DNA from: Hyphomicrobiales bacterium
Lineage (GTDB): Bacteria; Pseudomonadota; Alphaproteobacteria; Rhizobiales; RI-29
Assembly (NCBI GenBank): GCA_016125495.1
Contig: WGLQ01000003.1
Coordinates: 1 to 64,000, forward strand
Direction: 5' to 3'
Length of the DNA stretch: 64,000 nt
Part shown: positions 2,090-60,298 of the stretch, in pieces
How positions within the stretch are numbered: position 1 is the stretch's first letter
How the letters are laid out: every line of letters begins with the position of its first letter
Notes under the pieces: generated by a model
Told to the model about the DNA's origin: nothing
Seen by the model: only the letters and a program-made list of their open reading frames with translations
Databases searched by the model: none
Made by a program: the position numbers and the translations under genes

Positions 2090-2113
2090 GGTTCTTCGTA
2101 GAGGGCCAGCCGA

Positions 2114-10565: not shown

Positions 10566-10748
10566 GTGCAATCGAAGTTCGACCTAGTGCAGCGCTTCCA
10601 ACGTTTGGTTCGGAACCTTGCCGCGAGCGGGTACCAAATGTTGGATGCATAGGCTGCACAAGAATTACAAACTTGCTGGTGTTCCTCTTGGCGCCGACAC
10701 TTGAGCAATCGAGTGCCGCAAAGGGTATCAAGTGTCGGAGCCGGAACA

Positions 10749-35810: not shown

Positions 35811-35924
35811 ACCGCAGAACACATCCGAATGGCGCCTCCGGGCTGCCCTCGGGGCGCGCTTGCCCAACCTGCAACAGGCGAGCCGGCGGCGGGCCGGACA
35901 TTCCAGTCAACGACAGAGTACGCA

Positions 35925-41136: not shown

Positions 41137-41213
41137 TGGCGACCCCGGCAGGATTCGAACCTGCGACCATTCGCTTAGAAGGCGAATGCTCTATCCAGCT
41201 GAGCTACGGGGTC
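41137..41213 (-). tRNA. tRNA-Arg(TCT)
   Basis: Minus-strand cloverleaf: acceptor GACCCCG/CGGGGTC + G + CCA, D-arm GCTCAGCTGGATAGAGC, anticodon arm TTCGC-CTTCTAA-GCGAA, T-arm GCAGGTTCGAATCCTGC. Confidence 0.9.
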
Positions 41214-43368: not shown

Positions 43369-43399
43369 CGAACCTCCAGCCGGATGGCCGCGATCGCAT

Positions 43400-44680: not shown

Positions 44681-45750
44681 GGCCCCGGCTCCAGTACGGT
44701 CGCGGCACCTTCGAGGACGGAAAGGCCGACGTCGTCACCCGGCGCGGGCGAGGGATCGTCGCGTCGGGCGTCGACCTCTAGGACCGTACCGTCTCGCGAG
44801 ACGAGATCGAGGCGCAGACCCGAGCCGGCGAACGCAACGTCTCGAACCACGGCCCGCGCTGGGGCGCCCTCCGAAATGCGTATCGATTCCGGGCGAACGG
44901 CGAGACGGACGCGGGTTCCCTCGGCGGCGGCGGCGTTGCCCGCCGGGGTCCCCGCAACGATGCGACCGAGCGGGCCGGCATCGACGAGGAGATCGCCCTG
45001 GTGGCGGCCGGCAACGGTTCCGTCGACCAGGTTACAGCGGCCGAGGAAGCCGGCGACGAATTCGGTGCGCGGCCGGTCGTAAATCTCCGTCGGCGGTCCA
45101 ACCTGCTCGATGCGCCCATCGCGCATCACGGCGATGCGATCGCTCATGGTGATCGCCTCCTCCTGGTCGTGGGTGACGGCGACGAAGGTCAGGCCGACAT
45201 CGCGGTGGAGGCGTCGCAATTCACCCTGGAGCTGGCGGCGCAGGCTCGTATCGAGCGCGCCGAGCGGCTCATCGAGGAGGAGGGCGCCGGGCTCGACGAT
45301 AAGGGCCCGTGCGAGCGCCACGCGCTGGCGCTGGCCACCGGAGAGCTGGTGCGGCGCGCGCGCGCCGTAACCGTCGAGACCAATGCGCGTCAGCCAGTCG
45401 CCCGCCGCGCGGTCGCGCTCGGGCCGCGCGATGCCGCGCATCTTGAGGCCGTAGCCGATGTTGTCCAAGACGCTCTTGTGGGGGAAAAGGGCGTAGTCCT
45501 GGAACATGATCGAGGTGTCGCGACGGTTGGGCGGCAAGTCGGTGACATCCGTCCGACCGACGTGGATGCGACCTTCGCTGACCTGCTCGAGGCCGGCGAT
45601 CATGCGCAGCAGCGTGGTCTTGCCACAGCCGGAGGGACCAAGGAGGGTGAGGAATTCGCCGGCCTCGATGCGCAGCGAGAGCGGGCGCACCGCCTCGACC
45701 TCGCCGAAACGCTTGCCGACCCCGATGACCTCGACCGCTTTTGCTGGCAT
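44677..45750 (-). CDS. ABC transporter ATP-binding protein (PotA/polyamine-type, with TOBE C-domain)
   Basis: Walker A GPSGCGKTT. LSGGQRQR signature. Walker B LLLDEP. C-terminal transport-associated OB region. Confidence 0.9.
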   Translation of the reverse strand: MPAKAVEVIGVGKRFGEVEAVRPLSLRIEAGEFLTLLGPSGCGKTTLLRMIAGLEQVSEGRIHVGRTDVTDLPPNRRDTSIMFQDYALFPHKSVLDNIGYGLKMRGIARPERDRAAGDWLTRIGLDGYGARAPHQLSGGQRQRVALARALIVEPGALLLDEPLGALDTSLRRQLQGELRRLHRDVGLTFVAVTHDQEEAITMSDRIAVMRDGRIEQVGPPTEIYDRPRTEFVAGFLGRCNLVDGTVAGRHQGDLLVDAGPLGRIVAGTPAGNAAAAEGTRVRLAVRPESIRISEGAPARAVVRDVAFAGSGLRLDLVSRDGTVLEVDARRDDPSPAPGDDVGLSVLEGAATVLEPGP

Positions 45751-45754
45751 GGCG

Positions 45755-46540
45755 CTATCTCACGTCCTTGCGCATGAACAGGAGCTGGGCGACGAGACCG
45801 AGCACCATAGAAAAGAGGAATACCATGGTGCCGAGTGCGTTGATCGTCGGGTCGTAGCCGGTGACCAGCGTCGTCCAGATCTTGATCGGCAGTGTTATGG
45901 AGAAATTCGTGAGGAAGTAGGCGATCACGAACTCGTCGAAAGCGAAGGTGAATGTGAGGATCAGCGTGGCGACGATCGCGAAGCGGCAGGAAGGCAGGAC
46001 GATTTCCCAGATGGCGCGTGCCCGCGAAGCACCGAGCGCCCAGGCGGCCTCCTCGTGACTCTTGGGGATCTGCGCCAGCCGGTTGCGCAAATTGAGCACG
46101 GCGAGCGGAAGGACATAGAGAACCTGACCGAGATAGGCGAGCCAGAGTGAGGGCTCGATCCCCATGCGGACGAAATAAAGTCTCAGAGAAATGCCGACGA
46201 GGAGCAACGGCACCGCGAGCGGGGCAAGGACGAGAAGGGTGACGGCGGTCTTTCCGGGAAAGCGCGCGTTGACCAGGGAATAGGCGCAGAGGAAGCCGAC
46301 GGTGGTCGCGGTGAGGGCAACGGCGCCGGCAACGAGGATGCTGTTGAGGAAGCCGGCGGAATATTGACCGTCGGAGAACACACGCACGTACCATTCGAGC
46401 GTTGCATCGCGGAACGGCAGCGTCTGGAAGCGCGCAGATGAAAAGGAGAAGATCGCCATCACCACGATCGGCGCATAGACGGCGACGACGACGAGGGCGA
46501 AAAGACCCGTGAGCAGCGTGCGTGCGAGACCGCCCCTCAT
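45755..46540 (-). CDS. ABC transporter permease (PotC-like)
   Basis: 261 aa from MRGGLARTLLTGLFAL. 6 TM. EAA loop region (EEAAWALGASRARAIWEIVLP). Confidence 0.8.
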   Translation of the reverse strand: MRGGLARTLLTGLFALVVVAVYAPIVVMAIFSFSSARFQTLPFRDATLEWYVRVFSDGQYSAGFLNSILVAGAVALTATTVGFLCAYSLVNARFPGKTAVTLLVLAPLAVPLLLVGISLRLYFVRMGIEPSLWLAYLGQVLYVLPLAVLNLRNRLAQIPKSHEEAAWALGASRARAIWEIVLPSCRFAIVATLILTFTFAFDEFVIAYFLTNFSITLPIKIWTTLVTGYDPTINALGTMVFLFSMVLGLVAQLLFMRKDVR

Positions 46541-46544
46541 GGCC

Positions 46545-47447
46545 TCACCCCTGAAGCCGGACCTGGCGCACCAGCAGCAGAAGGGGCGCTGCGCCGGCCA
46601 GGATGACGAGGACAAGGATCGAGGCGAAGGTGGCCGCCATGGGCAGGTCGTAGGTGCCCTTGAGGACCGAAAGCATCACCTGCGCGAGAACGGGGCGGAA
46701 GCCGCCGCCGAGCAGCGCCGGAACGGCATAATCGCCGACAGCGATGATGTAGGTGAGCACCGCGCCGATCAGCCAGCCCGGAACGCTCAGCGGCAGGACG
46801 ATCTCGCGAAAGCCGGTCCATCGCGTGCCACCGAGCACGGCGTTCGCCTCGAGCAGGCGCCGGTCGATCGTCACCATGACGCTGAAAAGCATCAATGTCG
46901 TCAGCATGATGCCGAACAGCGTGAGCCCGAGGATCGAAGCGCCCATGGTGTAGAGGAAGCCGAGGGAGACGGCGGTTCCCGTCACGCGCTCGATCGCCCA
47001 GGCGATGACGCCGCTGTCGGCGAGCACGAGCTGCCAGGAAAAGGCGCGGATCGTAAAGCTCGTCCAGAAGGGTGCGACGAGGATGAACAAGAGCAGCACC
47101 CGCATGCGGGGCGAGACCTCGAAAGCGAGGAAATAGGCGAGCGGATAGGCGATGAGGCTCGAGAGCGCGACCACGGTCAGGGAGAGGAACAGGGTGCGCG
47201 ATAGGGCGCCGACGAGGCGCGGCTCGGCAAAGAAGGTGCGATAGTTGGCGAGCGTCGGCCCCTCCACTCCCTCGGCACCGAAGGAGAGCGCGATGGTGTA
47301 GGCGATCGGGGCCGCAAAAAACAGCAGAGTCAGGGCGACCGCCGGCAGAACGCCGTGCCAGAGGTTGAGGACGGGGGCGCGTGCGCTCGCCACGGCCGAC
47401 CTCACCAGCGCACGAACAGCGCGCGCATCATCGCCCCGTCGATGCAC
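46545..47447 (-). CDS. ABC transporter permease (PotB-like)
   Basis: About 300 aa. 6 TM. EAA-like loop (LEANAVLGGTRWTGFREIVLP). Annotated GTG start overlaps the 3' end of the cyclase gene by about 45 bp. True start may be slightly downstream. Confidence 0.75.
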   Translation of the reverse strand: MHRRGDDARAVRALVRSAVASARAPVLNLWHGVLPAVALTLLFFAAPIAYTIALSFGAEGVEGPTLANYRTFFAEPRLVGALSRTLFLSLTVVALSSLIAYPLAYFLAFEVSPRMRVLLLFILVAPFWTSFTIRAFSWQLVLADSGVIAWAIERVTGTAVSLGFLYTMGASILGLTLFGIMLTTLMLFSVMVTIDRRLLEANAVLGGTRWTGFREIVLPLSVPGWLIGAVLTYIIAVGDYAVPALLGGGFRPVLAQVMLSVLKGTYDLPMAATFASILVLVILAGAAPLLLLVRQVRLQG

Positions 47448-48745
47448 GTCGTCTTCAAGGGGATCGCCAGCACATGAGTGCGGTCCGAGCCGGCAAGGCC
47501 GATGTCACGGAAATCCTCGATGAAGGGAATGTTGCGGGCAAAGACGGCGAGATGGGTGTGGAACTCGTGCACGAAGACATGGCGCTTCGGCATCTCGCGG
47601 GCAACGAAATCCTGCGGGAAGTCGAGGGCGATCGCCTTGATGCCCTGGTCCATCAGCCATTCCGCCGCCGCGACCTCGAGGTTCGGGGCGACGAGATGCC
47701 AGCGCGTGCTCTCATAGCCCATGCGGTTGGTGAGGTCGGAGCGCAGCACGACGATGTCGCCCATTCGGATTCCCTTGGCGCGGGCGGATATCAATTCGGC
47801 GGTGATCGGCGTCGGTAGCGGCAGGTCGGAGAGATCGACGATGTTCGCCTCGCCGGTGAAGGCATCGAGGCCCCAGTTCGGCATCTCCTGGATGGTCATG
47901 CCGTCGCGGCGCATGTGGCGGGGCGCATCGCAATGCGTGAAGCCGTGACCGCGGATCGTGAAATGGATTTCATCCCGGTCGGCGCCGGCCGCGAAGTTCG
48001 GCCCGTCGTCGACATCGATGTACCAGCGCCAGTGGTTGAACATCGGGGTCGAGACGTCGAGCAGGACCGGCTCGTCGGACGGCCACTGCGTGAAGGCGAT
48101 GGGGCGGACGGGCGAGACGGAGGCGCGCGGAATGGCGAGGGGCAGGGAGCAGAAAAACACCTCGCTCTGCTCGATCGCCACGAGGTTCTCGGCGTTCTCG
48201 GTGACGAGCAGTCCGGCGGCATGGAGCGCGGCGCGGAAATGCTGGTTCGCGTTGGGGACATAGCCATCGTCGAGCGGGCGGCGGGCGGGCAATTCGTCGC
48301 ACGGAATGTCGAGGACGACGTGGCGGAATCCCTCGCGCGCGATCTGGTTGGCGCAGGCGGCGGCAAAGCGCGGCACCTCGCGCCAGTAGGCGAGGTGGCT
48401 GTTGCGGTGGCGGGCGGAATGACCGGTTCGCAGAACCAGAATCCGTCGACCCTTGGGGGCAACGCCCTTCAGCCGCTCGGCGAGGGCGACGGCGCCGATC
48501 TCCTTGAGATCGGACACATCGACGATGCTCGCGACCGCCGCAAAGCAATCCAGAGGATAGGCATCGAGGCGGCCCGCGCCACGCATCCGCCAGCCCGGAG
48601 CGGAGACGAACGAAAAGCCGGGCCCGCGCCACTTGAGGCCGAACTCCTGGAATTCATCGCCCCGCGCGGGGTCCTGGGAGACGAATGGATGGCTCTGCCA
48701 GTGGAAATGCGGCTCGATCAGAGCTGAGCAGTCGATGATCGCCAT
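47402..48745 (-). CDS. cyclase-family protein (kynurenine-formamidase-like fold), apparently duplicated domain
   Basis: 447 aa from MAIIDCSALIEPHFHW. Two copies of the HxGTHxDAPxH-type motif (HGFTHCDAPRHM and a degenerate EPHFHWQSH / EFHTHLAVFARN). Embedded inside the ABC importer operon. Confidence 0.55.
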   Translation of the reverse strand: MAIIDCSALIEPHFHWQSHPFVSQDPARGDEFQEFGLKWRGPGFSFVSAPGWRMRGAGRLDAYPLDCFAAVASIVDVSDLKEIGAVALAERLKGVAPKGRRILVLRTGHSARHRNSHLAYWREVPRFAAACANQIAREGFRHVVLDIPCDELPARRPLDDGYVPNANQHFRAALHAAGLLVTENAENLVAIEQSEVFFCSLPLAIPRASVSPVRPIAFTQWPSDEPVLLDVSTPMFNHWRWYIDVDDGPNFAAGADRDEIHFTIRGHGFTHCDAPRHMRRDGMTIQEMPNWGLDAFTGEANIVDLSDLPLPTPITAELISARAKGIRMGDIVVLRSDLTNRMGYESTRWHLVAPNLEVAAAEWLMDQGIKAIALDFPQDFVAREMPKRHVFVHEFHTHLAVFARNIPFIEDFRDIGLAGSDRTHVLAIPLKTTCIDGAMMRALFVRW

Positions 48746-49068
48746 GTCATTGATCTCGCATCGCAGGAACTGACGGGGGCCGGCCACCGGCCACAACAGC
48801 AGCCGGATCGGAACGGGCGCAACGCCGGAGAGCCGGGGAGGAATCGCCCGCCAGGGACCAGTCTAGCCCAGGGCGAGGGGGCTGGGGAGCCCCGCGACCG
48901 ACGGCACGCCCGCTCCATCGCCGACGCCGAGGCATCGGGCAACGAACCGGCGGCCGGTCGAGCGGAGTGGGTCACTCCCCGACCCGAGCGGCCGCGCGGC
49001 TCGATCGAGCCCACCTGCCACCGGACGGCCGTCCGCGGCGCCCGGCGGCGGTGACATGGTGATCGCGA

Positions 49069-50178
49069 TCAGGTCGCCTTGAAATCCTCCCAGGCCGCGA
49101 GCCAGTCCTTGTCGTTGTCCGGCTTCTTCCTCGGCGAGAGATTGGCCATGAAGACCGTGTCGAACTTGTCGAGATCGGCGAGGTTCAGCAGTTCGCGCTT
49201 GTCGGCGGGAAGCTGCTCGGCGGCGTTGCGGTTCGGCACCATGGAGTAGTACGTCTTGGCGACCGCGAGGCGGGACTGGAAGACGGGACCGCAAATGTAC
49301 TGGAGGAATTTCACCGCGTTCTCCGGCCGCGTCGTGTTCTTGGCGATGCAGGGCGCCTGGTCCCAGGTCACGCCGCCTTCCTTGGGCACCACCGCTTTGA
49401 ACGGCAAGCCGGAATCGTACATGCCGGCCTGCACCCATTCACCGGCGATCGCGAGATCGTAGGTGCCGCCGGCCATGGCCTGCTGCACCTGGCTGGTGTT
49501 GCCGACGAGGCCGACCTGCGGGCGCAGGCGCTTCAACGTCGCCTTCAGCTTGTCGAAGGCGCCGGCATCGAGATCGTACGGGTTGGGATTGCCGTCGAAC
49601 TTGGAGAGGCAGCCCATGTTCGGGAGATACCAGTCGAACAGCGCCACGCGCCCCTTGACTTTCTCGTCGAAGAACAGCGCCCAGCTCGAGCAATCCTCCT
49701 CCGAGAACTTCTTGTGGTTGTAGGTGATGCCGTAGTAGCCGAAGCGGTTGACGATGGCATAGCGCTTGCCGTCGACGATGGTCGGCCCCCAGTTCGCGAT
49801 GATCGGGAAATAGTCCCCCAGCGGATAGTCGCCGTCGGAGAGCTCCATCAGCACACCGTCCTTGGCCGCCTGCGGGATGAAAGCGGAGGTGGGCGTCATG
49901 ATGTCGAAGGTGCCGGGCGCGGAGGTCTTGACGAGCGCCACCATCTCCTCGTCCGAGCCGTCGTGGATCTTGAGATTGACCTTGATGCCGGTCTCCTTTT
50001 CGAAGGGCTCCAGCATGCCGGGTTCCTCGTAGCCGCCGAAGGCGAGCACGTTGACCTCGCCAGCGGCATAGGCCCGGCGGGTCCACACCCAGGGCATCGC
50101 CATGGCCGTGCCGGCGGCGGCCGTCACCTTCAAGACATCGCGGCGACTGTGTCCGCCGCGTCGAGATGCAGAGTTCAT
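49069..50178 (-). CDS. ABC transporter periplasmic substrate-binding protein (PotD/PotF polyamine-type), Tat signal
   Basis: 369 aa from MNSASRRGGHSRRDVLKVTAAAGTAMAMPWVW (twin-arginine), then PotD/F-fold SBP. Confidence 0.8.
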   Translation of the reverse strand: MNSASRRGGHSRRDVLKVTAAAGTAMAMPWVWTRRAYAAGEVNVLAFGGYEEPGMLEPFEKETGIKVNLKIHDGSDEEMVALVKTSAPGTFDIMTPTSAFIPQAAKDGVLMELSDGDYPLGDYFPIIANWGPTIVDGKRYAIVNRFGYYGITYNHKKFSEEDCSSWALFFDEKVKGRVALFDWYLPNMGCLSKFDGNPNPYDLDAGAFDKLKATLKRLRPQVGLVGNTSQVQQAMAGGTYDLAIAGEWVQAGMYDSGLPFKAVVPKEGGVTWDQAPCIAKNTTRPENAVKFLQYICGPVFQSRLAVAKTYYSMVPNRNAAEQLPADKRELLNLADLDKFDTVFMANLSPRKKPDNDKDWLAAWEDFKAT

Positions 50179-50507
50179 TGCCGATCCTCCCGTTGCGTCG
50201 ATCCGCTCCCATCCGCCGCCGGGCAAGCAATCGCACCGGCGCGACGGTGACCGCGAGACAGCACCCGTCCTCGGTCACTCAGATTGTCAACAATTGACAA
50301 CGCTAAGGACGCTGGCCCATTGTGTCAAGGAGCGCTCGCGGGGCAACCTCGGGTCGCGGCGCTCGATCGGGGCGGGCCTTCGGTTGGCTCCAGCTCCATC
50401 CCGGGGCCGGACCGGATCGCACGCGACGGTGCTCGAAGCCAGGGCGCCGATGGCCGGTGACGCAGGCTGTCAGCGCGCCACGGGCGCATGAACGATAACG
50501 GAGCAAT

Positions 50508-51689
50508 ATGTCGGCAAACGGCGAGATCGGCGGCACGGCGCCGGCCAACAGGGGGCCGGAACCGCATCGGGACGCAGAGGATTGGGCAACCCATCCGCGC
50601 CCATCGCCTACGCTGGCGCTCGCCGAGGCGATCGAGGTGGCGCGCCGGGCCGGACGCGACGTGCTGTCAATCAGCACGCCGACATTCCCGGAGCATGCCC
50701 TGGACCCGAAGGTCGTCGGGGCGGCGAGTTGCCGGCTGTCGCCGGCGGAAGGCGCGCCGGAGTTGAGACGGGCGAGCAGGGACGCGCTGTTTTCCCGATG
50801 GCAATTGCCCGAGCACTCGGTGCTCGTGACCGCCGGTGCCAAGGCCGGCCTGTTTTGCGCCCTCAAGAGCGGGGCGCGACCGGGCAGCGCTGTCGTCGTC
50901 GTCGCGCCTGCCTGGCCCAGCTACGGCGATATCGTGCGGATGGCGGGCCTCTCGGCCCACGTCTACGAGACGCGGGCGCGGGACGGCTTCGCCATCGAGG
51001 CCGACGGTCTCGAGCGTGCGATGGTGGCGAGCGGAGCGCGAACGATCGTGCTCTCGAACCCCTCCAATCCGACAGGCCGCATCCTCGAGCCCGCCGAGCT
51101 CATGCTCCTGACACAGGCGGCCGAACGGCACGACGCGGAGCTGATCATCGACGAGAGCTTTTCCGACATCATGTTCGAGGAGAGCGCCTGGCAAAACTCC
51201 GTGGCGCCCGGGAACCGGCGTATCGTCATCCTCAATTCGTTCTCCAAGAATTTTCATCTCCAGGGCCTGCGGGTCGCCGCCTGCCTTGCGCATCAGAGCC
51301 GGGCCGGCGCGATCGTCGCCTGCCACCAGACACTCTTCAGCGCGGCGCCCAGTGTCAGCCAGGCGATCGCGCTCGCCGCGCTCGACGACAAAGGCCGCAT
51401 TCCGCCGTCCGCGCACTACGGCGCGGCTCGCGAGGTCGCGCTCGAGATCATCGCACGGGCGGGATGGCGTCTTTCCAGGGGTGGCGGAACCTTCTATTTC
51501 TTTCCGTCCATGACGGATGCCCAGCGGACCATCGCGGCGATGCAGGAAGCGGGAATCTACGCGCTCTCCGGCGCGGCCTTCGGGGACGCCTATGGCGATC
51601 ATTTGCGCGTGTGCTATGGCAAGCCCGTGGCGGAAATGATCGCGATCCGCGAGCGCCTGGCCGCCGCCGGGATCATCGGGCGGGGCTAG
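50508..51689 (+). CDS. class-I/II PLP-dependent aminotransferase
   Basis: 393 aa. SFSKNFHLQGLRV contains the PLP-Lys (SxSK). NPSNPTG motif. Confidence 0.8.
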   Translation: MSANGEIGGTAPANRGPEPHRDAEDWATHPRPSPTLALAEAIEVARRAGRDVLSISTPTFPEHALDPKVVGAASCRLSPAEGAPELRRASRDALFSRWQLPEHSVLVTAGAKAGLFCALKSGARPGSAVVVVAPAWPSYGDIVRMAGLSAHVYETRARDGFAIEADGLERAMVASGARTIVLSNPSNPTGRILEPAELMLLTQAAERHDAELIIDESFSDIMFEESAWQNSVAPGNRRIVILNSFSKNFHLQGLRVAACLAHQSRAGAIVACHQTLFSAAPSVSQAIALAALDDKGRIPPSAHYGAAREVALEIIARAGWRLSRGGGTFYFFPSMTDAQRTIAAMQEAGIYALSGAAFGDAYGDHLRVCYGKPVAEMIAIRERLAAAGIIGRG

Positions 51690-51692
51690 TTC

Positions 51693-53012
51693 ATGCCGGA
51701 TATCATCTCCCCCAACTCGGGCACGGCGATCGGCCACTGGGAACCGACGTCGGAGGCCGGCATCGAGAGCATCCTCGCGGGTCTCGGACTGCGGCAGCGG
51801 GCAATGCCGGGCCCGGGCGAGCGCGCCGGGCAGTTGAGGGCGCTCGCCAGCCGGCTCGCCGGGCGAAAGGAGGCGCTCACGCGCGTCATCGTCGCTGAGG
51901 TCGGCAAGACGCCGGGCGAAGCCGCCGACGAGGTGGATTATGCGGCGAGCTTCCTCGAATATGCCGCCGGTGTGTGTGACCATGCGCTGAGCCGCACGAC
52001 GAAGGGAGGCGAGCGGGACCTCTGCGTCGTGCCGGCGGGGCCGGCGCTGCTCATCGCCCCCTACAATGATCCCCTCGCCGGCATCACGCGAAAAATCGCC
52101 CCCGCCATCGCCTCCGGCTGTCCGGCCGTCGTCAAGCCGTCCGCGCTCGGTCAGCTGACGGCCGAGGCCTTGATGGCGAGCGTCGGCGACTGCGGTCTCG
52201 GCGACCTCGTGCACATGGTCAATCACACGAGCCGCGACGTGCTCGACCGGCTGGTTCGCGACGAGCGGCTCCGGGTGCTCTCGTTCACGGGCTCGACGGA
52301 AGTCGGCGTGGCGCTCGCAGCCAAGGCCGGCGGCAGCCTCAAGCGCCTCGTCCTCGAGCTCGGGGGTAACAATCCTTTCCTCGTCCTCGAGGGCGCGGAC
52401 GTCGAGCGCGCGGTGCGCGATGCGGTGGCGCGGAAAATCCGGGCAGCGGGCCAGGCCTGCTCGGCGGAGAACCGGATCTACGTTGTCCCTTCTCTCTATT
52501 CGGCGTTCCGCGACCGGTTCATGGACGCCCTCGGCGCGATCACCTACGGGCCCTCCGACATCGGCGTCTCGATGGGACCGCAGCGCACGGCACGCGCGGT
52601 CGAGACGCTCGAGCGGCTGGTCGCGGCGAGCCGGGCAGACGGGTCGGTCGAACGCCTCGGGCAACGCGCGGGGGAGGGCGGTTTCCTGTTCCCACCGACG
52701 GTCGTTGCAAGCGATGTCGCGCTGCGCGAAGCAGAGGCGTTCGGGCCGCTCGTCTCGCTCACCTCCGCGACGCGCGAGGAGGCTCTCGCGATCGCCGCCG
52801 GCGAGCGCCAGGCGCTCGTCTGCTACATCTATGGCGAGATCGCCGAGGAAGAAATCGCACCGCTGCGCTTCGGCTCGATCGGGCTCAACTCGACACGCAT
52901 CCAGGGACCGGACGTGCCGACCGGTGGGTTCGGCACCGCTGGCATCGGGCGCGAAGGCGGCCCGTGGGGGCTCGAAGAGTACCTCACCACCATCAACATC
53001 CGCCGCGGCTGA
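51693..53012 (+). CDS. aldehyde dehydrogenase family protein
   Basis: 439 aa. Catalytic Cys context (AAGQACSAENRIYV). Glu in LELGGNNP. 4-bp gap from upstream aminotransferase. Confidence 0.85.
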   Translation: MPDIISPNSGTAIGHWEPTSEAGIESILAGLGLRQRAMPGPGERAGQLRALASRLAGRKEALTRVIVAEVGKTPGEAADEVDYAASFLEYAAGVCDHALSRTTKGGERDLCVVPAGPALLIAPYNDPLAGITRKIAPAIASGCPAVVKPSALGQLTAEALMASVGDCGLGDLVHMVNHTSRDVLDRLVRDERLRVLSFTGSTEVGVALAAKAGGSLKRLVLELGGNNPFLVLEGADVERAVRDAVARKIRAAGQACSAENRIYVVPSLYSAFRDRFMDALGAITYGPSDIGVSMGPQRTARAVETLERLVAASRADGSVERLGQRAGEGGFLFPPTVVASDVALREAEAFGPLVSLTSATREEALAIAAGERQALVCYIYGEIAEEEIAPLRFGSIGLNSTRIQGPDVPTGGFGTAGIGREGGPWGLEEYLTTINIRRG

Positions 53013-53028
53013 ATGGAAGGACGAAAAA

Positions 53029-53406
53029 ATGATGCGTGAACTCGTCACGGACCCGTCAGCGCCCGCCTCGACCTCTCCCGTCTCGCAGGCAACGCTTGGT
53101 GGCGGGTTCGTGTTCGTCTCGGGGCAGATGCCACGCGACATGGCTAGCGGGCGCATCGTCGAGGGCGCAGAGGCGCAGGCGCGCCTTTCGATGCAGCACT
53201 GCCTCTCGATCCTGAAGGCCGCCGGCTCCGGCCCCGAAAAGGTGATGATCGCCTGGATCTACGTGACCGACCTCTCCGTGAAGCCAGCCGTCAACGCGGT
53301 CTTTGCCGAGACGTTCGGGGATCGCCCGCCCGCGCGCAATCTCGTTGCCGTCAAGGACATCGGCGAGGAGGCCCTCGTCGAGATATCGCTCATCGCACTC
53401 GCGTGA
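53029..53406 (+). CDS. RidA/YjgF-family (reactive enamine/imine deaminase-like) protein
   Basis: 125 aa from MMRELVTDPSAP. GGFVFVSGQ and conserved C-terminal AVKDIGEEALVEI pattern. GGAAGGA RBS. Confidence 0.7.
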   Translation: MMRELVTDPSAPASTSPVSQATLGGGFVFVSGQMPRDMASGRIVEGAEAQARLSMQHCLSILKAAGSGPEKVMIAWIYVTDLSVKPAVNAVFAETFGDRPPARNLVAVKDIGEEALVEISLIALA

Positions 53407-55378
53407 CCGCACCCTCGAGGATTTCGAGCGCCCGGTCGATCTCCTCGTCGGAGACCGTCAGTGGCGGCACGAGACCGATGACGTGGCCGTGGGTGCCGCA
53501 CTCCCAGGTGACGAGGCCCGACGCGAGGGCGGCCGAGCGGATGGCGCGCGTGCGCGACTGATCGGGCGCGCCGGAGGTATCGAAAACGGCGAGACCACGC
53601 ATCGCGGCAGTGCCAACGAGCGCCGTTTCGGGGCAGCGCGCGGCAAGTCCACTACCTGCGATGCGCTCGCCGATCCCGAGCGCACGGGCGATCAAGCCCT
53701 CCTCCAGCAGCACGTCGAGGGTCGCGAGCGAGGCCGCGGCCGACAGGGGATGGAGCTGGAAGGTCGAGGATTGCACGCCGGGGCGCAGCAGCTTCAAGAT
53801 TTCCGGCCGTGCCGCCACCAGCGCCCCGGGTACACCGCCGCTCGCTGCCTTGGCAAGAACCAGGATGTCGGGGATCGCATCACTCCATTGGACCCCGAAG
53901 AGGCGGCCGGTGCGCCCGTAGCCGGTGAAGACCTCGTCGGCAACGAGGAGGGTTCCGGCGCTCCGGCAACGCGCCGCGAGCATCCCCAGAAGCCCTCGAT
54001 GCGGCGAGCGCATGCCCGCCGTCGCCTGGACCGGCTCGACGAGAACGGCCGCGACGTCTCCCGTCGACAACGCGCGATCGAGGCGCTCGCCGAGGTCGGC
54101 GAGATCGCCATCGCTCACCGGATACGGCAAATGCACGGTGTCGGGTTTGAGTTCTCCGAGGACCGCATTGGCGCCGCGCGCGTGCGAGACGGCGAGCGAG
54201 CCGATGGTGCGGCCGTGATAGGAGCCCTCGAAGGCCAGGAAGCGGCGCCGTCCGGTCGCATGCACGGCCGCCTTCAGCGCCGTCTCGATCGCTTCGGTGC
54301 CGTTGGTCGCGGGGTGGAACGCCGAGAGGCCCGAAGGCAGAACGCCGGCAAGGCGCTCCATGAGCGCGATCTGGACAGGAGCATGAAAGTGCGGCCCGAG
54401 GTGCGTCAGCCCGCGATCGAGTTCCGTGCGGATCGCGGCGAGCACACGCGGATGGCCGTGGCCGAGCACGGTCGTTCCCGAGCCGCAGGCAAAGTCGAGA
54501 TAGCGCTTGCCGTCCGTGTCGAGCAGCATCGTGCCGGCGGCGGAGCGGAAAACCGGCGGGGTCTCGCTGATGGCATAGGTCTTCGTGCCCGACGAGAGGT
54601 GGCGACGCATGGCGCCATGGATGCGCCCGGTCTCCCCCTTGCCCGGCGGTGGATCGAAAAGCCGACCCATCCCGGGTTTTTCCGCCTCGACGCCGGCGAG
54701 CCGGCAGGCGTGCCAAACGAGGGCGGCCGTCGCGGGCACGGCGGGCTTGCCGCGATCGGCCTCGAGGCGGGCCAGCATGCCGGCGGTGCGCAGACCGCCT
54801 CCGAGGAATACGATGGCATCGGCTTCGGGATGGTCGGCGCTCACCGCGGCACCCCGCCAGACCTCCGCCCCCGCGCCGGCAATGGCGTGCTCGTCGTGGT
54901 GGGCGACCTGCCGCAGCGAAACGACCGCCAGGCCATCGGCCTCGAGGAAAGCAAGGCCCGCCGCCGTGACCTCGGCATCGTAGGGGGAGACGACGGCGAT
55001 GCGCCGCGCATCGAGGTGAGCGAGGGCCGCTCCAAGGGCTGTGGAAGGAGTGGTGCCGTGTGGGGCGCCGGCAGCCTCGGCGATCGCGCGCGCCTGGACC
55101 AGATCGAAGCCCGACCCTTTGATGAAGGAACCGGCGTGGTCGCCGAGCGCGGCGACCGCCGGTCTTGCCGCGCGCGTGAGGCGGGCGGCGGTGATCATCG
55201 GCGCGAGATCGGCGGAGGCCTCGAAGGTCGCGCGATCGAGGCCATGTCCTTCGAGCGTGCCCGGGTAGCGTGAGGCGAGCCAGGCGACGCCGTCCGGCAG
55301 ATAGGACCAATACTCGTCGTCGTTGAGACCGTCGTCGGGCCAGATGAACGCGACGCGTGCGCGGCTGCCTCTCGTCAT
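53390..55378 (-). CDS. fusion protein: N-terminal Asp/Glu/hydantoin-racemase-superfamily domain (arylmalonate decarboxylase / EutA-like) + C-terminal class-III aminotransferase
   Basis: 662 aa. N-terminal about 240 aa with VAFIWPDDG and paired Cys/Asp-racemase-fold segments. C-terminal omega-aminotransferase with PLP-Lys in LVLAKAASGGVP. GAGGAG RBS before ATG 55378. Confidence 0.75.
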   Translation of the reverse strand: MTRGSRARVAFIWPDDGLNDDEYWSYLPDGVAWLASRYPGTLEGHGLDRATFEASADLAPMITAARLTRAARPAVAALGDHAGSFIKGSGFDLVQARAIAEAAGAPHGTTPSTALGAALAHLDARRIAVVSPYDAEVTAAGLAFLEADGLAVVSLRQVAHHDEHAIAGAGAEVWRGAAVSADHPEADAIVFLGGGLRTAGMLARLEADRGKPAVPATAALVWHACRLAGVEAEKPGMGRLFDPPPGKGETGRIHGAMRRHLSSGTKTYAISETPPVFRSAAGTMLLDTDGKRYLDFACGSGTTVLGHGHPRVLAAIRTELDRGLTHLGPHFHAPVQIALMERLAGVLPSGLSAFHPATNGTEAIETALKAAVHATGRRRFLAFEGSYHGRTIGSLAVSHARGANAVLGELKPDTVHLPYPVSDGDLADLGERLDRALSTGDVAAVLVEPVQATAGMRSPHRGLLGMLAARCRSAGTLLVADEVFTGYGRTGRLFGVQWSDAIPDILVLAKAASGGVPGALVAARPEILKLLRPGVQSSTFQLHPLSAAASLATLDVLLEEGLIARALGIGERIAGSGLAARCPETALVGTAAMRGLAVFDTSGAPDQSRTRAIRSAALASGLVTWECGTHGHVIGLVPPLTVSDEEIDRALEILEGAVTRVR

Positions 55379-55388
55379 CAAGGTCTCC

Positions 55389-56132
55389 TCAATGCCCGAG
55401 CACGTTGTCGAGGAACCGGCGCAGGCGCGGATGGGGTGGAGCGGAAAAGAACTCGTCGGGCGGCGCGAGTGCGACGATGCGCCCGTGATCCATGAACGCG
55501 ACCCGATCGGCGGCGCGGCGCGCGAACCCCATCTCGTGCGTCACGACGATCATGCTCATGCCCTGACCTCCGAGTTCGAGCATGACGTCGAGCACCTCCT
55601 TGATGGTCTCTGGGTCGAGTGCCGACGTCGGCTCGTCGAACAGCATGAGGACGGGGTCCATGGCGAGCGCGCGGGCGATCGCGACGCGCTGCTGCTGGCC
55701 GCCGGAGAGCTGGGAGGGCAGTTTGGCGGCCTGATCGGCGAGGCGGACACGCTCGAGCAGCACCATGGCTTTGGCCTCGGCCACGTCGCGCGGCATGTCG
55801 AGCAGCTTTCGCGGAGCAACGGTGATGTTGTCTATGACGGAAAGGTGCGGAAAAAGATTGAACTGCTGGAAGACCATGCCGACCCTGCGGCGGAGCCGGG
55901 CGAGGCCGGCCCGGTCACCACGCACCAACTCTCCCTCGACGGCGATCGCTCCGGCGTCCGGTTCCTCGAGCCGGTTGATGCAACGGATCAGCGTCGACTT
56001 GCCGGAGCCCGAGGGGCCGCAGACGACGAGCCGCTCGCCGCGTGCCATTTCCAGATCGACGCCATCGAGCGCCGTGAAGGACCCGAAGCGCTTGACGAGG
56101 CCGGTGATGCTCAAAAGGGGAGGGGCTGTCAT
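55389..56132 (-). CDS. polar amino-acid ABC transporter ATP-binding protein
   Basis: 247 aa. [35 protein letters not shown]. Confidence 0.9.
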
Positions 56133-56159
56133 GTGGTCTCGTTGATCCCCGCTTCGATT

Positions 56160-56810
56160 TCAGTGCGCGAGCCTGCGCTCGAGCGTGCGTGAGAGGTGCG
56201 AAAGTACGCCGACGATGACGAGGTAGAGCAGCGTCATCTGCACCACGATCTCGACGACGACGAAGGTCTCGAAGATGAGCGCGTTGCCGACCTGCGCGAT
56301 CTCGTGGACGGAAATGACGGAGAGCAGGGCGGATGCCTTGATGACGTTCGCGAGTTCGTTGGTGAGCGGCGGCAGGATGCGCTTGAGGGCCTGCGGGAAC
56401 AGCAGCTCCAGATAGGTTCGCCAGAGCGGAAAGCCGAGCGCCAGCGCCGCCTCGCGCTGGCCGCGCCCGAGGCTGTCGATCGCCGAGCGGATGATCTCCA
56501 CCGCATAGACCGCGCCGACGATCGTGAGCGCCGCGACACCCGTCCAGAAGCCGTTGAGAACGAGCCCGATGGCGGGAAGCCCGAAATAGACGAAACTGAT
56601 GACGAGGAGCGGCGGGATGCCGCGCACGACCTCGACGAAGGCGGCGACGAGGAGGCGTAGGGGAAGCGGACCGATCATGCGCGCGACCGCGAGCGGGGGG
56701 GCCAGCAGGCAGGCGAAACCCAGCGCGAGAACGCTGACCTCGACAGTGACGACGGCCGCCTCGAGCATACGCGGAAGGAATTCGAAGAATGCGTTCCAAT
56801 CGAATTTCAT
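56160..56810 (-). CDS. polar amino-acid ABC transporter permease (HisM/GlnP family)
   Basis: 216 aa. 5 TM. EAA loop (QREAALALGFPLWRTYLELLFPQALKRILPPLTNE). Confidence 0.85.
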   Translation of the reverse strand: MKFDWNAFFEFLPRMLEAAVVTVEVSVLALGFACLLAPPLAVARMIGPLPLRLLVAAFVEVVRGIPPLLVISFVYFGLPAIGLVLNGFWTGVAALTIVGAVYAVEIIRSAIDSLGRGQREAALALGFPLWRTYLELLFPQALKRILPPLTNELANVIKASALLSVISVHEIAQVGNALIFETFVVVEIVVQMTLLYLVIVGVLSHLSRTLERRLAH

Positions 56811-57481
56811 CGCTGCTCCGCAAGACCTCCCGAAGCCGAGAGCCGACCCTCGAGCGCGCGTGCAACGAGGCTCAGCGCGTAAACGAAGCAGAAGTACCAG
56901 AAGCCCTCCACGATCAACACCTCAACGAAGCGGAAATTCGCCGAGATGATCGCCTCGGCGGCCTTGTGCAGTTCGTAGAGCGTGATGATGGAGAGAACGC
57001 TCGAGGCCTTGATGAGCTGCGAGAGTTCGTTCATGACCGGCCCCACCATGCGGCGGGCGGCCTGCGGGAGGATGAAACTCCAGAGTGTGGGACGCGCCTC
57101 GAAGCCGAGCGCGTAGGCCGCCTCCCATTGACCGCGCGGGACAGAGGAGACGGCGGCCCGACCGATCTCGATCTGATAGCCGGCCGAGTTCACGACGAGC
57201 GCCAGAACCCCCATCCAGAAGAGCGGAAGCTTGATGCCGGCGGCGGGAAGAAGGAAATAGACGGCGAAAATCTGGATGAGAATCGGCGTGCCACGCACGA
57301 AAAAGACGTAGGCATCGAGCAGCCATGCGGCGATGTGGCGATCGGGGAGCGTCGTTCTCAGGGTTCCGAGGGCGAGGCCGAGCGGCGTTGCCATGACGAG
57401 CGCGGTGAGCGAAAGCGCGATCGTGAGACCGAGCGGGGGCAGGAGCCGGACGAGGACGTCGAGCATGAATGCCAGGTCCAT
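56807..57481 (-). CDS. polar amino-acid ABC transporter permease (HisQ/GlnP family)
   Basis: 224 aa. EAA loop (QWEAAYALGFEARPTLWSFILPQAARRMVGPVMNE). ATGA overlap with downstream permease. Confidence 0.85.
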   Translation of the reverse strand: MDLAFMLDVLVRLLPPLGLTIALSLTALVMATPLGLALGTLRTTLPDRHIAAWLLDAYVFFVRGTPILIQIFAVYFLLPAAGIKLPLFWMGVLALVVNSAGYQIEIGRAAVSSVPRGQWEAAYALGFEARPTLWSFILPQAARRMVGPVMNELSQLIKASSVLSIITLYELHKAAEAIISANFRFVEVLIVEGFWYFCFVYALSLVARALEGRLSASGGLAEQR

Positions 57482-57556
57482 CGTCCCGCTCCCGTTCCAA
57501 CAGACACGACGCGCCGTGGAAGTCGCCTTGGCGCGTCGGATGGCGTCGCCGCGATA

Positions 57557-58400
57557 TCACCAGGTCGGCGCTGCGTCGGGCAGCGCGTCGACGAAGGACT
57601 GGCCGAACCACTTCATCTGGAGTTCGGCGAGCAGGCCGCTCTTTTTCGCCCCGAGGATGAAGGCATCGAACGCGGCGCGCAGGTCGTCGTCCTCCTTGCG
57701 GAAGGCCGCGGCCGTCCACTCGCCGGCGAACTTGCCATCGCAGTTCCAGGCCATGGCCTTGAGGGTCGGATTGGCCTTCTGTCCTTCGAGCAGTGAGACG
57801 ATGGTGGAGGCATAACCCGCGATGCGGCCGATCTTCATGGCTTCGTAGGCGAGCGCATCGTTGTCGAAGGTCTGAATGGAGCCGGAGAACGTGATGCCCT
57901 TGGCGGCGGCGCACTCCTCGAGCTGCTTGATCTGCGGCGTGCCGGCACCGGCGGCCACGGCCTTGCCGGCGAGGTCGGCGAAGGTTGCCGCGCCGCCATC
58001 CGACACCACCATGAGGCCGGAGGCCGCATCCATGTAGGGAACGGAGAAATTCACCCGCTCGAAGCGCTTCTGGGTCGCCGTCATGCCACCCTGGATCATG
58101 TCGAAATCGCCGTTGTATAGCGACTGGATGACGGTCGACCAGTTGGTGTCGATCGGCATCGCCTTGACCCCGAGAGAGGCGGCGAAGGCACCAGCGAGAT
58201 CGATGTCGTAGCCGACGATGTTGTTGTTCTCGTCGCGGAACTCGAAGGGCCGGTACTGCGCTTCCAGCCCGAAGCGGAGTTCGCCTCGCGCCTTTATCTC
58301 GTCGAGCTTGCCGGCCTCGACCGGGGTCGAGATGCCCACTGCCAGGCCGATCGCCGCGGCCAATCCGAGCATGAACCTCATGGAACGAAACTCCTCACCT
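57557..58400 (-). CDS. polar amino-acid ABC transporter substrate-binding protein
   Basis: 281 aa from MRFMLGLAAAIGLAVGISTPVEA (signal peptide). SBP_bac_3 fold (ELRFGLEAQYRPFEF...). Confidence 0.8.
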
Positions 58401-58419
58401 TCTGCGTTGCTTTCTTCAT

Positions 58420-59874
58420 TCATTTCCGGCGCCGTCCGGCCTCGGCCTCGAGCGCGTCGAGGTCCGGCCGGGGGCGGCGCAGGCTGTCGTCGCGCTCGAA
58501 CAGAGCCTCGAGCGTCACTGCGACATCGGCAAGGAAGGCGTCGTGATGCAGCCTTCCGATGATCTGGATTCCGAACGGCAAGCCACCCTCGCCACGCCCG
58601 CATGGCAGCGCGACCACGGGGTTGCCCATGAGCGTCACGCCGTAGGCGATCGCCTCCCAGCGAAGATAATTGGACATCGGCTCGCCGTTGATCGCCTTGG
58701 GCCATTCCTCCTCGTGGCGGAAGGGTGGCACCGACGCGCAGGGCGTCACGAGGAGATCATAGGTTTCGAAGAACGCCTGCGAGCGGCGATGAATACGGGA
58801 ATGCTCCCCCGTCGCCCAGGCGATCTCGTCGATGCCGACCTCCATCCCGCGCTCCACCTCGAAGCGCACATTGGACGCGAGAGCGGATCTGTCACGGTCG
58901 TACAGCGCCTTGAAATCGTGCACGAATTCGAGACTGCGCATCGCCGCGAGAACGCGATCGACGGTTCCGAGATCCGGGCATGCATCCTCGAGGGAGCCAA
59001 ACCAGCCGGCAAAGCGGGCGAGGCGCTCGCGAAAGGTGCGACGCACGCCGTTGTCGACGGGAGCGAAACCCAGGTCCTCGCTGACGGCGACCTTGAGGCG
59101 CGAAAGGTCGATCGGGCGGGACGGACCGTCGAAGGCCGGATCGCGCGGAAAAGACAGCGGATCGAAACTCTCGCCGCTCGCCATGGCCGCGAGCAGGAGC
59201 CGGGCATCGCGCGCTTCGCGCCCCATCGGACCTTCGACGTTGAAGGGCGAAAAGCCGAATGCCCGGCGCTCGTTGGCGACGGTGCCGGCGGACGGGCGGA
59301 TGCCGGTGATGCCATTGAACGAGGCGGGTGTGCGCAGCGAGCCGGCGAAGTCCGAGCCCATGGCAAGTGGCACAAGCCCGGACGCGAGGGCGACCGCCGT
59401 GCCACCGGAGGAGCCGGCGGCCGTGAAGCGGATGTCGTGTGGATTGGCGGTCGTGCCCCAGAGCGGATTTGCGCTGGTCGCGCCGAAGCCGAGTTCGGGA
59501 ATATTCGTCTTGCCGAGCACGATGGCGCCCTGGCGGCGGAGGTGGGCGACAATGAACTCGTCGGTGGCGGCGACGTTGTCCCGATAGAGGAACGAGCCGT
59601 AGGTGGTCGCGAGCCCGGCCGCATCGTTCATGTCCTTGATGCCGATCGGCAGGCCATGCAGGGGGCCCAGCGGGTCGCCGCGCATCACGGCCTGCTCGGC
59701 GACCGCGGCCTCGGCGAGCGCCTGTTCCGGTTTCATGTCGCAGAACGCGACCAGCACGCCGTTGAGCCGCTCGATGCGCGCGAGATAGTGGCGCACCACC
59801 TCGCGGGGCGACACGATCTTGGCGCCGATCAGGCGGCGCAATTCAACCGCGCTCAGCTCGTGGATTTCCGGCAT
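58420..59874 (-). CDS. amidase-signature (AS) family amidase
   Basis: 484 aa. Ser-cisSer-Lys triad contexts (GIKD...K, GGSSGGTAVALASG). Confidence 0.85.
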   Translation of the reverse strand: MPEIHELSAVELRRLIGAKIVSPREVVRHYLARIERLNGVLVAFCDMKPEQALAEAAVAEQAVMRGDPLGPLHGLPIGIKDMNDAAGLATTYGSFLYRDNVAATDEFIVAHLRRQGAIVLGKTNIPELGFGATSANPLWGTTANPHDIRFTAAGSSGGTAVALASGLVPLAMGSDFAGSLRTPASFNGITGIRPSAGTVANERRAFGFSPFNVEGPMGREARDARLLLAAMASGESFDPLSFPRDPAFDGPSRPIDLSRLKVAVSEDLGFAPVDNGVRRTFRERLARFAGWFGSLEDACPDLGTVDRVLAAMRSLEFVHDFKALYDRDRSALASNVRFEVERGMEVGIDEIAWATGEHSRIHRRSQAFFETYDLLVTPCASVPPFRHEEEWPKAINGEPMSNYLRWEAIAYGVTLMGNPVVALPCGRGEGGLPFGIQIIGRLHHDAFLADVAVTLEALFERDDSLRRPRPDLDALEAEAGRRRK

Positions 59875-60118
59875 CGGGCCCTGGTTCGGTGACGAAGCGA
59901 CCTAGCTCTTGCTGATTGTTGATTGTTGACAATCTCAGAGTCAAGATGGCTCGACCGTCAGGACGCGGATGGCTCCCATCGAAATCTCGCGGGTCGGGAG
60001 CCAGCGGGCGTGATCGTGGGTGGCAACGCGCCCGCCCTCAGGTCCTCGGGCCGGCCATCGAGCGCCCGGCGCACCGCCAGTCGCCCGATGCCCGTCCATA
60101 TCATCTCGGTCGGCTCGT

Positions 60119-60298
60119 TCAGAGCCCGCGAACGAGATTGCCGATCATCAGGATGATGTAGCCCGAAACGGCGAGCCACAGGTTCTGGTTCGGGAACTTG
60201 AACGGCACCTGGATCAGGCCGAGGTGACTGACGACCGCGAGGCCAACCAGGACCAGCGAGATGAGGAAGACGAAAACGGTCGGCGGATTGAGGCGCAT
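60119..60298 (-). CDS. small membrane protein (59 aa)
   Basis: MRLNPPTVFVFLISLVLVGLAVVSHLGLIQVPFKFPNQNLWLAVSGYIILMIGNLVRGL. Two TM helices. Strong GC3 bias. Only the first 59 codons of the 407-aa track ORF look genuine. Confidence 0.4.
   Translation of the reverse strand: MRLNPPTVFVFLISLVLVGLAVVSHLGLIQVPFKFPNQNLWLAVSGYIILMIGNLVRGL

Follow-up and report, generated by a model that had tools for sequence, protein, structure and literature searches.

A gene for a 662 aa protein in which a domain with the fold of arylmalonate decarboxylase (AMDase) is joined to a class-III pyridoxal phosphate (PLP) enzyme lies on the minus strand (53390-55378) of a 64,000 nucleotide stretch of contig WGLQ01000003.1, referred to here as the window, from a Hyphomicrobiales bacterium [assembly GCA_016125495.1]. 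The fusion gene is part of a conserved unit of 17 genes (42664-59874). The reading favoured here, with a probability of roughly 0.55, is that these genes form a regulon, controlled by a GntR/FCD-type regulator, for the uptake and breakdown of one nitrogen-rich small molecule or of two related ones. The two domains of the fusion may act consecutively. The novelty of the locus is that known folds are found in a conserved new combination with a remodelled active site, and no paper describing the fusion or the gene cluster was found in the literature.

Gene content and conservation of the locus

The region from 42.6 to 59.9 kb was mapped using the open reading frame (ORF) listing and third-position GC content, and the resulting gene map was unambiguous (GC content of the window, 0.64-0.70). 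Domains were assigned by Pfam and NCBIfam profile searches of the window proteins. An earlier note on this sequence had described a self-contained island of nine genes at 50508-59874. All nine were found with the domains given there, the fusion had been placed correctly, and the view of the locus as one for import plus catabolism is supported by the gene content. However, eight further genes, all on the minus strand and directly to the left, are conserved with the nine and have a putative operator in common with them, so that the nine genes do not stand as a unit of their own and probably represent the right-hand half of a larger one. The amidase and importer genes had been placed after the fusion gene; they do share its strand, but the fusion is the last gene of this minus-strand operon, which is transcribed in the order amidase, periplasmic binding protein, two permeases, ATP-binding cassette (ABC) ATPase and fusion. 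In all, the locus includes two importers, one of a PotD-like cation type and one of a polar-amino-acid or zwitterion type, two hydrolases, three PLP enzymes, an aldehyde dehydrogenase (ALDH) and a RidA protein, as follows.

42664-43368, minus strand: GntR/FCD-family transcriptional regulator, presumed repressor (Pfam GntR and FCD; 52-71% identity in 8 of 9 related loci)
43400-44680, minus strand: second class-III PLP enzyme, AT3b, a paralogue of the fusion C-domain (PF00202, E 5e-83)
44677-45750, minus strand: PotA/PhnT-like ABC ATPase with a TOBE domain (Pfam ABC_tran and TOBE_2)
45755-46615 and 46545-47447 (starts approximate), minus strand: two PotB/PotC-like permeases (Pfam BPD_transp_1; kept in related loci)
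47402-48745, minus strand: two-domain cyclase-family (kynurenine-formamidase-like) hydrolase (PF04199; 49-70% identity in relatives)
49069-50181, minus strand: PotD-like periplasmic binding protein with a TAT-type signal (Pfam SBP_bac_8 and TAT_signal; 74-80% identity in relatives)
50283-50294: putative operator palindrome ATTGTCAACAAT, in the divergent promoter region between the PotD-like and AT12 operons
50508-51689, plus strand: class-I/II PLP enzyme, AT12 (PF00155)
51693-53012, plus strand: ALDH, 439 aa (PF00171, E 3.5e-86)
53029-53406, plus strand: RidA-family imine/enamine deaminase (PF01042)
53390-54637, minus strand: fusion linker and class-III PLP domain (PF00202 Aminotran_3)
54638-55378, minus strand: fusion N-domain, AMDase/maleate-isomerase fold (PF17645 Amdase)
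55389-56132, minus strand: GlnQ/EhuA-like ABC ATPase (Pfam, NCBIfam)
56160-56810 and 56807-57481, minus strand: two polar-amino-acid-type permeases (Pfam, NCBIfam)
57557-58381, minus strand: family-3 periplasmic binding protein (SBP_bac_3) with a signal peptide (PF00497; start corrected)
58420-59874, minus strand: amidase-signature-family amidase (PF01425, E 1e-82)
59915-59944, minus strand: promoter-like site TTGACT-18-AACAAT, overlapping the second operator copy

The 17-gene set is conserved in 8 of 9 related loci, and the genes flanking it are not. In tblastn searches with the window proteins against the nine loci, all 17 were conserved at 31-83% identity wherever the contig extends, and no counterpart was found for the sulfotransferase gene, the isocitrate-dehydrogenase-like gene and the left-flank genes tested. 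Gene order is the same in L001, L025 and L083 and is rearranged in L002 and L084-L087. The exception is the closest relative, L081 (69% identity), which retains only the operon from the amidase to the fusion and a RidA remnant (11973-12194; 73 aa, covering 28% of RidA at 80% identity), and this copy of the cluster looks decayed or rearranged. The GlnQ-like ATPase is confined to the window and its close relatives L001, L025, L081 and L083; L002 and L084-L087 encode two binding proteins and two different permease pairs but a single ABC ATPase, which is of the TOBE type. The convergent fusion and RidA genes share 17 bp at their 3′-ends (53390-53406), and a 17 bp overlap is likewise present in L083 (11937-11953). 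This leaves no room for a terminator, so that transcripts from the two sides are bound to overlap.

In the 64 kb there are exactly two perfect copies of the AT-rich palindrome ATTGTCAACAAT, both in promoter regions, with the second copy (59922-59933, reverse complement) upstream of the amidase gene and overlapping the sole sigma-70-like site found. When up to two mismatches were allowed, there were five strand-matches against 0.87 expected, a number reached in none of 100 shuffles. Its TTGT-NN-ACAA core is also found between the orthologous genes of L001, L025, L081, L083-L087 and L089. A regulator gene within the cluster and a predicted operator of the t.GT.N.AC.a type at the promoters are what a FadR/FCD-type GntR repressor would be expected to show, and the putative operator lends in-silico support to co-regulation of all three transcription units. 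An Rfam search of the window returned tRNAs alone and no riboswitch.

The fusion protein and the active site of its N-terminal domain

The Amdase domain (PF17645) corresponds to residues 64-242 of the fusion (E 7e-24; 85 bits, gathering threshold 25.9) and Aminotran_3 (PF00202) to residues 277-658 (E 5.5e-78; 263 bits), with the motif VAFIWPDDG at residues 9-17. After the ATPase stop codon, GGAGAcc-TTG-ATG provides a good ribosome-binding site for a fusion ATG at 55378, and third-position GC is 0.81 in the part encoding the N-domain and 0.83 in the remainder of the gene. A search of 5.8 billion proteins recovered ∼68 clusters (90% level) carrying both domains in 640-690 aa with 39-100% identity, the 100% match being MBI1383772.1 from a Hyphomicrobiales metagenome-assembled genome (MAG). 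The AlphaFold model of the full-length fusion has a predicted local distance difference test score (pLDDT) of 87 and a predicted template modelling score (pTM) of 0.80, with the linker ordered, and that of the N-domain alone has a pLDDT of 93 and a pTM of 0.92. In Foldseek comparisons the N-domain model matched AMDase [PDB 3DG9] with a template modelling (TM) score of 0.85 and a root-mean-square deviation of 2.2 Å over 238 of 247 residues at 28% identity, and maleate isomerases with TM 0.83-0.84. The possibility that the N-domain is a spurious extension, with the true start near residue 250, is refuted by the ribosome-binding site, the codon usage, the clusters and the model. The fusion, which the earlier note had called unusual, is rare and real, a true joining of two partners that are invariably found together.

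When 1.84 billion representatives were scanned exhaustively by HMMER with the N-domain, 2160 relatives were detected at E <= 1e-3, 12 of them at E <= 1e-30; five of the best matches were fusions, and the others among them were ∼250 aa proteins. Three fusion loci, all in MAGs of Alphaproteobacteria or Paracoccaceae, were found in a species-level genome collection, the output of which was dominated by generic aminotransferases. One fusion cluster has a RefSeq accession (Aestuariivirga sp.), the other relatives being from Alphaproteobacteria metagenomes or MAGs, and no close relative turned up among 72,556 plasmids searched by tblastn with the fusion, N-domain and cyclase sequences. All source names are generic, and no relative has a specific functional name.

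In L087, L089 and L091 the same cluster contains an Amdase gene of 240-247 aa directly upstream of a close, unfused aminotransferase (49-55% identity), and in L091 these two genes overlap by 4 bp. As the halves are fused here and encoded by adjacent genes elsewhere, they form a Rosetta-stone pair, and the Amdase and PLP proteins are predicted to be functionally coupled. On the contig of P0096 [ENA ERZ4112831] there is a variant cluster that combines the triad of RidA, ALDH and class-I aminotransferase with a class-III enzyme (42% identity), a Peripla_BP_6-type ABC importer and a NicX-like protein (PF26233). Amdase, cyclase and family-3 importer genes are all missing from it. This variant indicates that the core consists of the triad and the class-III enzyme, with the Amdase partner forming part of an input branch.

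AMDase was the best PDB sequence neighbour of the N-domain (phmmer E 3e-15), and active site residues were mapped from this alignment in native numbering.

AMDase Gly74: fusion Asp80
AMDase Thr75: fusion His81
AMDase Ser76: fusion Ala82
AMDase Tyr126: fusion Tyr133
AMDase Val156: fusion Glu163
AMDase Met159: fusion Ile166
AMDase Cys188: fusion Gly193
AMDase Gly189-Gly190: fusion Gly194-Gly195

When fused and split members were aligned with the top 150 representatives of the exhaustive scan, every full-length fused or split member examined carried P14-D16-N19-E22-R37, G-D80-(H/C/N/F)-A, SPY, E163 and G193-G-G. The LMGTSLSF motif of AMDase reads LGD(H/C/N/F)AGSF in this clade with Asp80 invariant, both catalytic-cysteine positions are non-Cys in all of these members, and the oxyanion-hole Tyr133 and Gly194-Gly195 are kept across 31-100% identity. 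Relatives of the N-domain at 38% identity or less retain the canonical two-Cys motifs xCTSS...SCTxR, and the closest of these, P0136, is on a 909 bp contig. The fused/split clade thus derives from two-Cys ancestors, the thiols having been swapped for carboxylates under strong purifying selection. In four of the two-Cys relatives (P0206, P0233, P0264 and P0274) the domain is fused to D-2-hydroxyacid dehydrogenase, YbaK/tRNA_edit or ACT domains, partners that appear to link the wider two-Cys family to amino- or hydroxy-acid metabolism.

The features described as diagnostic for AMDase (PMC4996985) are a sole proton donor at Cys188, Gly74 in place of the second racemase cysteine, the LMGTSLSF motif, a dioxyanion hole formed by T75/S76/Y126/G189 and a hydrophobic V156/M159 pocket, and most of those residues that could be mapped are not those of the N-domain. 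It scores 89.3 bits with the NCBIfam AMDase equivalog NF052327 (cut-off 225) and 70.6 bits with EutA TIGR02990 (cut-off 318). The N-domain shares with AMDase (EC 4.1.1.76; PDB 3DG9, 3IP8) the fold, the equivalents of Tyr126 and Gly189-Gly190, and at most one candidate proton donor with no two-base pair. It differs in that Cys188 is replaced by Gly, Gly74 by Asp and V156 by Glu, T75 and S76 are not kept, and a PLP enzyme is always paired with it. The position altered in engineered G74C variants of AMDase [PDB 3IXL] is that of Asp80 in the fusion. Maleate cis-trans isomerase and the Asp/Glu/hydantoin/allantoin racemases belong to the same superfamily and share the fold, but their two opposed catalytic cysteines are absent from all full-length fused or split members examined and present in distant relatives.

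With both cysteines absent, thiol-based isomerase or racemase mechanisms cannot operate and are excluded for the N-domain. The racemisation or isomerisation step that had been proposed is accordingly unlikely, as the two catalytic Cys positions are occupied by Asp80 and Gly193 and the AMDase and EutA scores are under their cut-offs. The N-domain would be either a single acid/base catalyst using Asp80 or a ligand-binding pseudoenzyme.

The latter alternative, a non-catalytic module for ligand binding, specificity or allostery that presents the amine to the PLP domain or senses it, is slightly the less likely of the two. Both catalytic cysteines are gone, the acidic pocket that has gained D80 and E163 (D16 and E22 are also conserved) is suited to binding an ammonium group, and the P0096-type aminotransferase works in a similar triad context with no Amdase partner. 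The two-lobe fold is like that of periplasmic binding proteins, to which weak Foldseek matches were also obtained. However, replacements that are strictly invariant at catalytic positions, with Tyr133 and Gly194-Gly195 kept, exceed the usual need of simple binding, and where the two halves are split, the domain is kept as a gene of its own with translational coupling. If the N-domain proves inert, the locus would be one more uncharacterised catabolic cluster.

The PLP enzymes

The fusion C-domain is nearest to γ-aminobutyrate (GABA) and PuuE transaminases and to class-III racemases (∼30% identity; TMt 0.82-0.87), and includes the family-specific motifs DFACGSGTT, GPHFH, QATAG and TWECG. In common with the GABA/PuuE class-III aminotransferases it has the Schiff-base lysine (Lys510) and the pyridine-N aspartate (Asp481), both invariant, and the arginine for the distal carboxylate (Arg390, which corresponds to GabT Arg141). 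In GabT, Arg398 binds the α-carboxylate of 2-oxoglutarate or glutamate and Glu211 is its gate. The equivalents of these two residues are missing: in an alignment to GabT and PuuE, Arg398 is replaced by Gly635 (HVIGLVPPLT aligned with NVLRILVPLT) and Glu211 by Thr453 (VQATAG aligned with VQGEGG) in all 21 aligned fusions. The second class-III enzyme, AT3b, is 36% identical to the fusion PLP domain, shows the same two losses in all orthologues, and gives weak NCBIfam matches to diaminobutyrate transaminases. With the R398/E211 pair missing from the PLP domain of the fusion, its identity as an ordinary ω-aminotransferase is not secure.

Loss of this pair from both paralogues and all orthologues, the presence of α-amino-ε-caprolactam racemase (ACLR), amino-acid amide racemase, Ile 2-epimerase and the lyase PbfA among the matches, and the tight conservation of RidA in the cluster would also fit PLP lyases, deaminases or racemases (phospholyase, PbfA or amino-lactam racemase-like), with RidA clearing the imine. 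That the class-III domain and its paralogue are enzymes of this kind is unlikely, as the C-domain is most similar overall to GABA and PuuE transaminases and reaches 177 bits with PbfA against a cut-off of 525. In addition, it differs from ACLR and the amino-acid amide racemases in that the equivalents of ACLR Asp210 and Lys241 (taken from PDB entries 5M4B and 5M4D) are T453 and V483, as mapped via GabT with a one-residue offset and no direct ACLR alignment. Transamination with an unusual acceptor and a lyase or racemase reaction are types that sequence alone does not separate.

The third PLP enzyme, AT12, has the SFSK lysine, NPxNPTG and the C-terminal α-carboxylate arginine in HxRxC(F/Y)G conserved, with DESF in place of DExY, and its best PDB matches are aspartate aminotransferases. 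A possible relationship to GntC/VioD was considered and rejected: the best NCBIfam match of AT12 was GntC with 181 bits (cut-off 415), and no GntC structure was found at E <= 1e-15. The N-terminal markers E9/S25/S26 (PMC10367076) fall outside the part that aligned.

Proposed pathway and comparison with known systems

The mix of components suggests that amino compounds with a blocked carboxyl or amino group (amide, formyl or lactam) are unmasked, deaminated and oxidised. The two hydrolases, of the kynurenine-formamidase and amidase-signature families, could free the blocked group. We infer that both domains of the fusion handle one labile metabolite in consecutive steps. The order that is tentatively preferred has the PLP domain converting an amine to a reactive carbonyl compound, on which the N-domain would perform a cofactor-free proton transfer with Asp80 as the acid/base, in a manner likened to that of engineered AMDase variants with a proton donor at position 74. 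This transfer may be a decarboxylation, or an enol/keto (tautomer) or epimer adjustment, of a malonate-semialdehyde-like product, and ALDH, the class-I aminotransferase and RidA would complete the route to central metabolites. It is conceivable, though still speculative, that the clade represents a new catalytic type in the Asp/Glu-racemase superfamily, with carboxylates (Asp80 and Glu163) in place of thiols and an obligate class-III PLP partner that uses no 2-oxoacid co-substrate, and that the regulon is an undescribed pathway of planktonic Alphaproteobacteria for a nitrogen-rich compound.

Several observations weigh against this scheme. The oxyanion residues T75 and S76 of AMDase are replaced by H/C/N/F81 and A82, and a Glu placed where the AMDase pocket is hydrophobic would not obviously favour decarboxylation. 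The acidic pocket could merely bind an ammonium group with no catalysis, and the missing R398 could be compensated elsewhere in the fold. The P0096 variant fits an accessory or upstream role of the N-domain as well as a downstream one. No substrate could be read from NCBIfam searches of all 17 proteins, in which every equivalog match was sub-threshold, or from PDB sequence searches with the N-domain, the PLP domain, AT3b, AT12, the cyclase, both binding proteins and the amidase, which found generic neighbours. Neither the plasmid collection nor the matches in the genome collection gave a cultured, studied organism that carries the cluster.

The nine-gene pathway outlined earlier, in which an amino-acid amide or an ectoine- or diaminobutyrate-like compound is imported, deamidated and racemised, then subjected to ordinary ω-transamination with RidA and oxidised by ALDH, is improbable. 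The gene content does fit the outline, and the two-Cys family, with its fusions to D-2-hydroxyacid dehydrogenase, ACT and YbaK-like domains, resembles amino- or hydroxy-acid racemases. The weak diaminobutyrate-transaminase matches of AT3b and the similarity of AT12 to aspartate aminotransferases also make conversion of a diamino acid via an acidic amino acid to an oxo-acid conceivable. However, a two-base racemase or nucleophilic isomerase needs the cysteines that are absent, the PLP domain has neither R398 and E211 nor the D210 and K241 of ACLR, the EutA score is 71 against 318 bits with no EutB, EutC, EutD or EutE present, and the unit is one of 17 genes with a common predicted operator. The weakest alternative, an annotation or assembly artefact in which a false upstream extension or a frameshift has merged two genes, draws on the origin of the window from a MAG and on the separate genes seen elsewhere but can be dismissed, given the same continuous 640-690 aa protein in ∼68 independent clusters from many samples, the Shine-Dalgarno site before the ATG, the even codon bias and the confident model with its ordered linker.

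The earlier note had also found no fit to the described eut/doe or dav gene clusters, and this holds, as none of the 17 products is of the EutB, EutC, EutD, EutE, DoeA, DoeB, DavA or DavB type. The ectoine cluster has the form ehu/ueh-eutABCDE-atf-ssd with the MocR-type regulator EnuR (PMC5924519). As in that cluster, an Amdase-superfamily protein is encoded beside an amino-acid-type ABC importer, a class-III aminotransferase and an ALDH, and the permeases and ATPase in the window give sub-threshold Ehu matches, but EutB-E are lacking, the N-domain is under the EutA cut-off, and the regulator is FCD-type and not of the EnuR type. The dav pathway takes lysine via 5-aminovaleramide to glutarate, using the monooxygenase DavB and the nitrilase-family amidase DavA, encoded near DavT and DavD. 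The unit differs in having no flavin monooxygenase, and the sole CN-hydrolase gene (39345-40196) is outside it.

The lower nicotinate pathway includes the deformylase NicD, the maleamate amidase NicF and the maleate isomerase NicE, and there is a formal likeness in the combination of a formamidase-like hydrolase, an amidase and a protein with the maleate-isomerase fold. However, the window has a cyclase in place of an α/β hydrolase and an amidase of the signature family in place of an isochorismatase-like one, the isomerase nucleophile is absent, no ring-cleavage dioxygenase is encoded in the window, and the nicotinate pathway has no place for three PLP enzymes and RidA. This analogy was dropped because the active-site residues do not fit, as was, for the same reason, the idea of an ACLR acting with the amidase on an amino-acid amide. 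A phosphonate lead, which came from a weak match of the GntR protein to phnR_burk, a match of the ATPase to PhnT2 and a PbfA match, was rejected as the unit includes no C-P-cleaving enzyme and the scores are below cut-off.

The natural substrate of AMDase is unknown (PMC4996985). In the sister clade described here a fixed partner enzyme, the genomic context and the regulator make function directly testable, and a cysteine-free active site in a racemase fold would, if true, be new enzymology. Alphaproteobacteria in which the regulon recurs are of freshwater, estuarine and marine origin, and most of them are known from metagenomes. That two importers and eight enzymes are given over to one task points to a common dissolved organic nitrogen compound, the turnover of which is unmapped.

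Among the remaining products of the unit, catalytic motifs are retained in the ALDH, the amidase and RidA. The ALDH translation includes the catalytic motifs LELGGNNP and GQACSA, with all NCBIfam equivalogs under their cut-offs. RidA is the best conserved enzyme of the set (65-76% identity in related loci) and retains the carboxylate-binding Arg in a PARN motif (PF01042, 78.5 bits; TIGR00004, 78.9 bits, cut-off 106), and quenching of an enamine or imine by this protein is plausible. The amidase (PF01425, 279 bits) has IKD, GSSGG and GSDFAGSLRTPA, from the Ser-cisSer-Lys signature region, in its translation and scores 381 bits with PRK07486 (cut-off 465). The best PDB matches of the PotD-like binding protein are PotD and Lmo0810, and those of the family-3 binding protein are generic amino-acid binders. 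The PhnT2 and PotA matches of the TOBE-type ATPase (44677-45750) are under their cut-offs.

Two cyclase-like halves in tandem make up the cyclase-family protein, and only the C-terminal one has the HxGTHxDxPxH-type metal motif (HGFTHCDAPRH). In L089 and L091 the amidase gene is directly preceded by one for a second cyclase paralogue, which has kept the metal motif in the N-terminal half instead (cyclase genes at 1966-3303 and 4832-6160 in L089, and at 1392-2711 and 4183-5523 in L091). In L090 (Paracoccus ferrooxidans pFER3; 7970-11470) a single-domain cyclase gene lies between the genes for a TRAP binding protein and TRAP permeases and adjoins a four-carbon acid-sugar kinase and an aldolase. 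This layout, with a hydrolase gene inside a transporter operon, is shared with the window and, by analogy, fits a role of the cyclase in opening or deblocking an imported compound.

To the left of the unit are more genes of nitrogen or sulphur metabolism, for a Cys/Met-metabolism PLP enzyme (35829-37109), the CN-hydrolase and a short-chain dehydrogenase (40218-40916), followed, just left of the regulon, by a tRNA-Arg(TCT) gene (41137-41213) and an EamA transporter gene (41734-42615). The short-chain dehydrogenase and EamA genes have no counterpart in the related loci. The tRNA-Arg gene could mark an insertion boundary; however, base composition is unchanged there. At the other end, the interval that separates the sulfotransferase gene from the amidase promoter region holds a 59 aa ORF on the minus strand (60119-60298), which has no Pfam match and two predicted hydrophobic helices (MRLNPPTVFVFLISLVLVGLAVV...).

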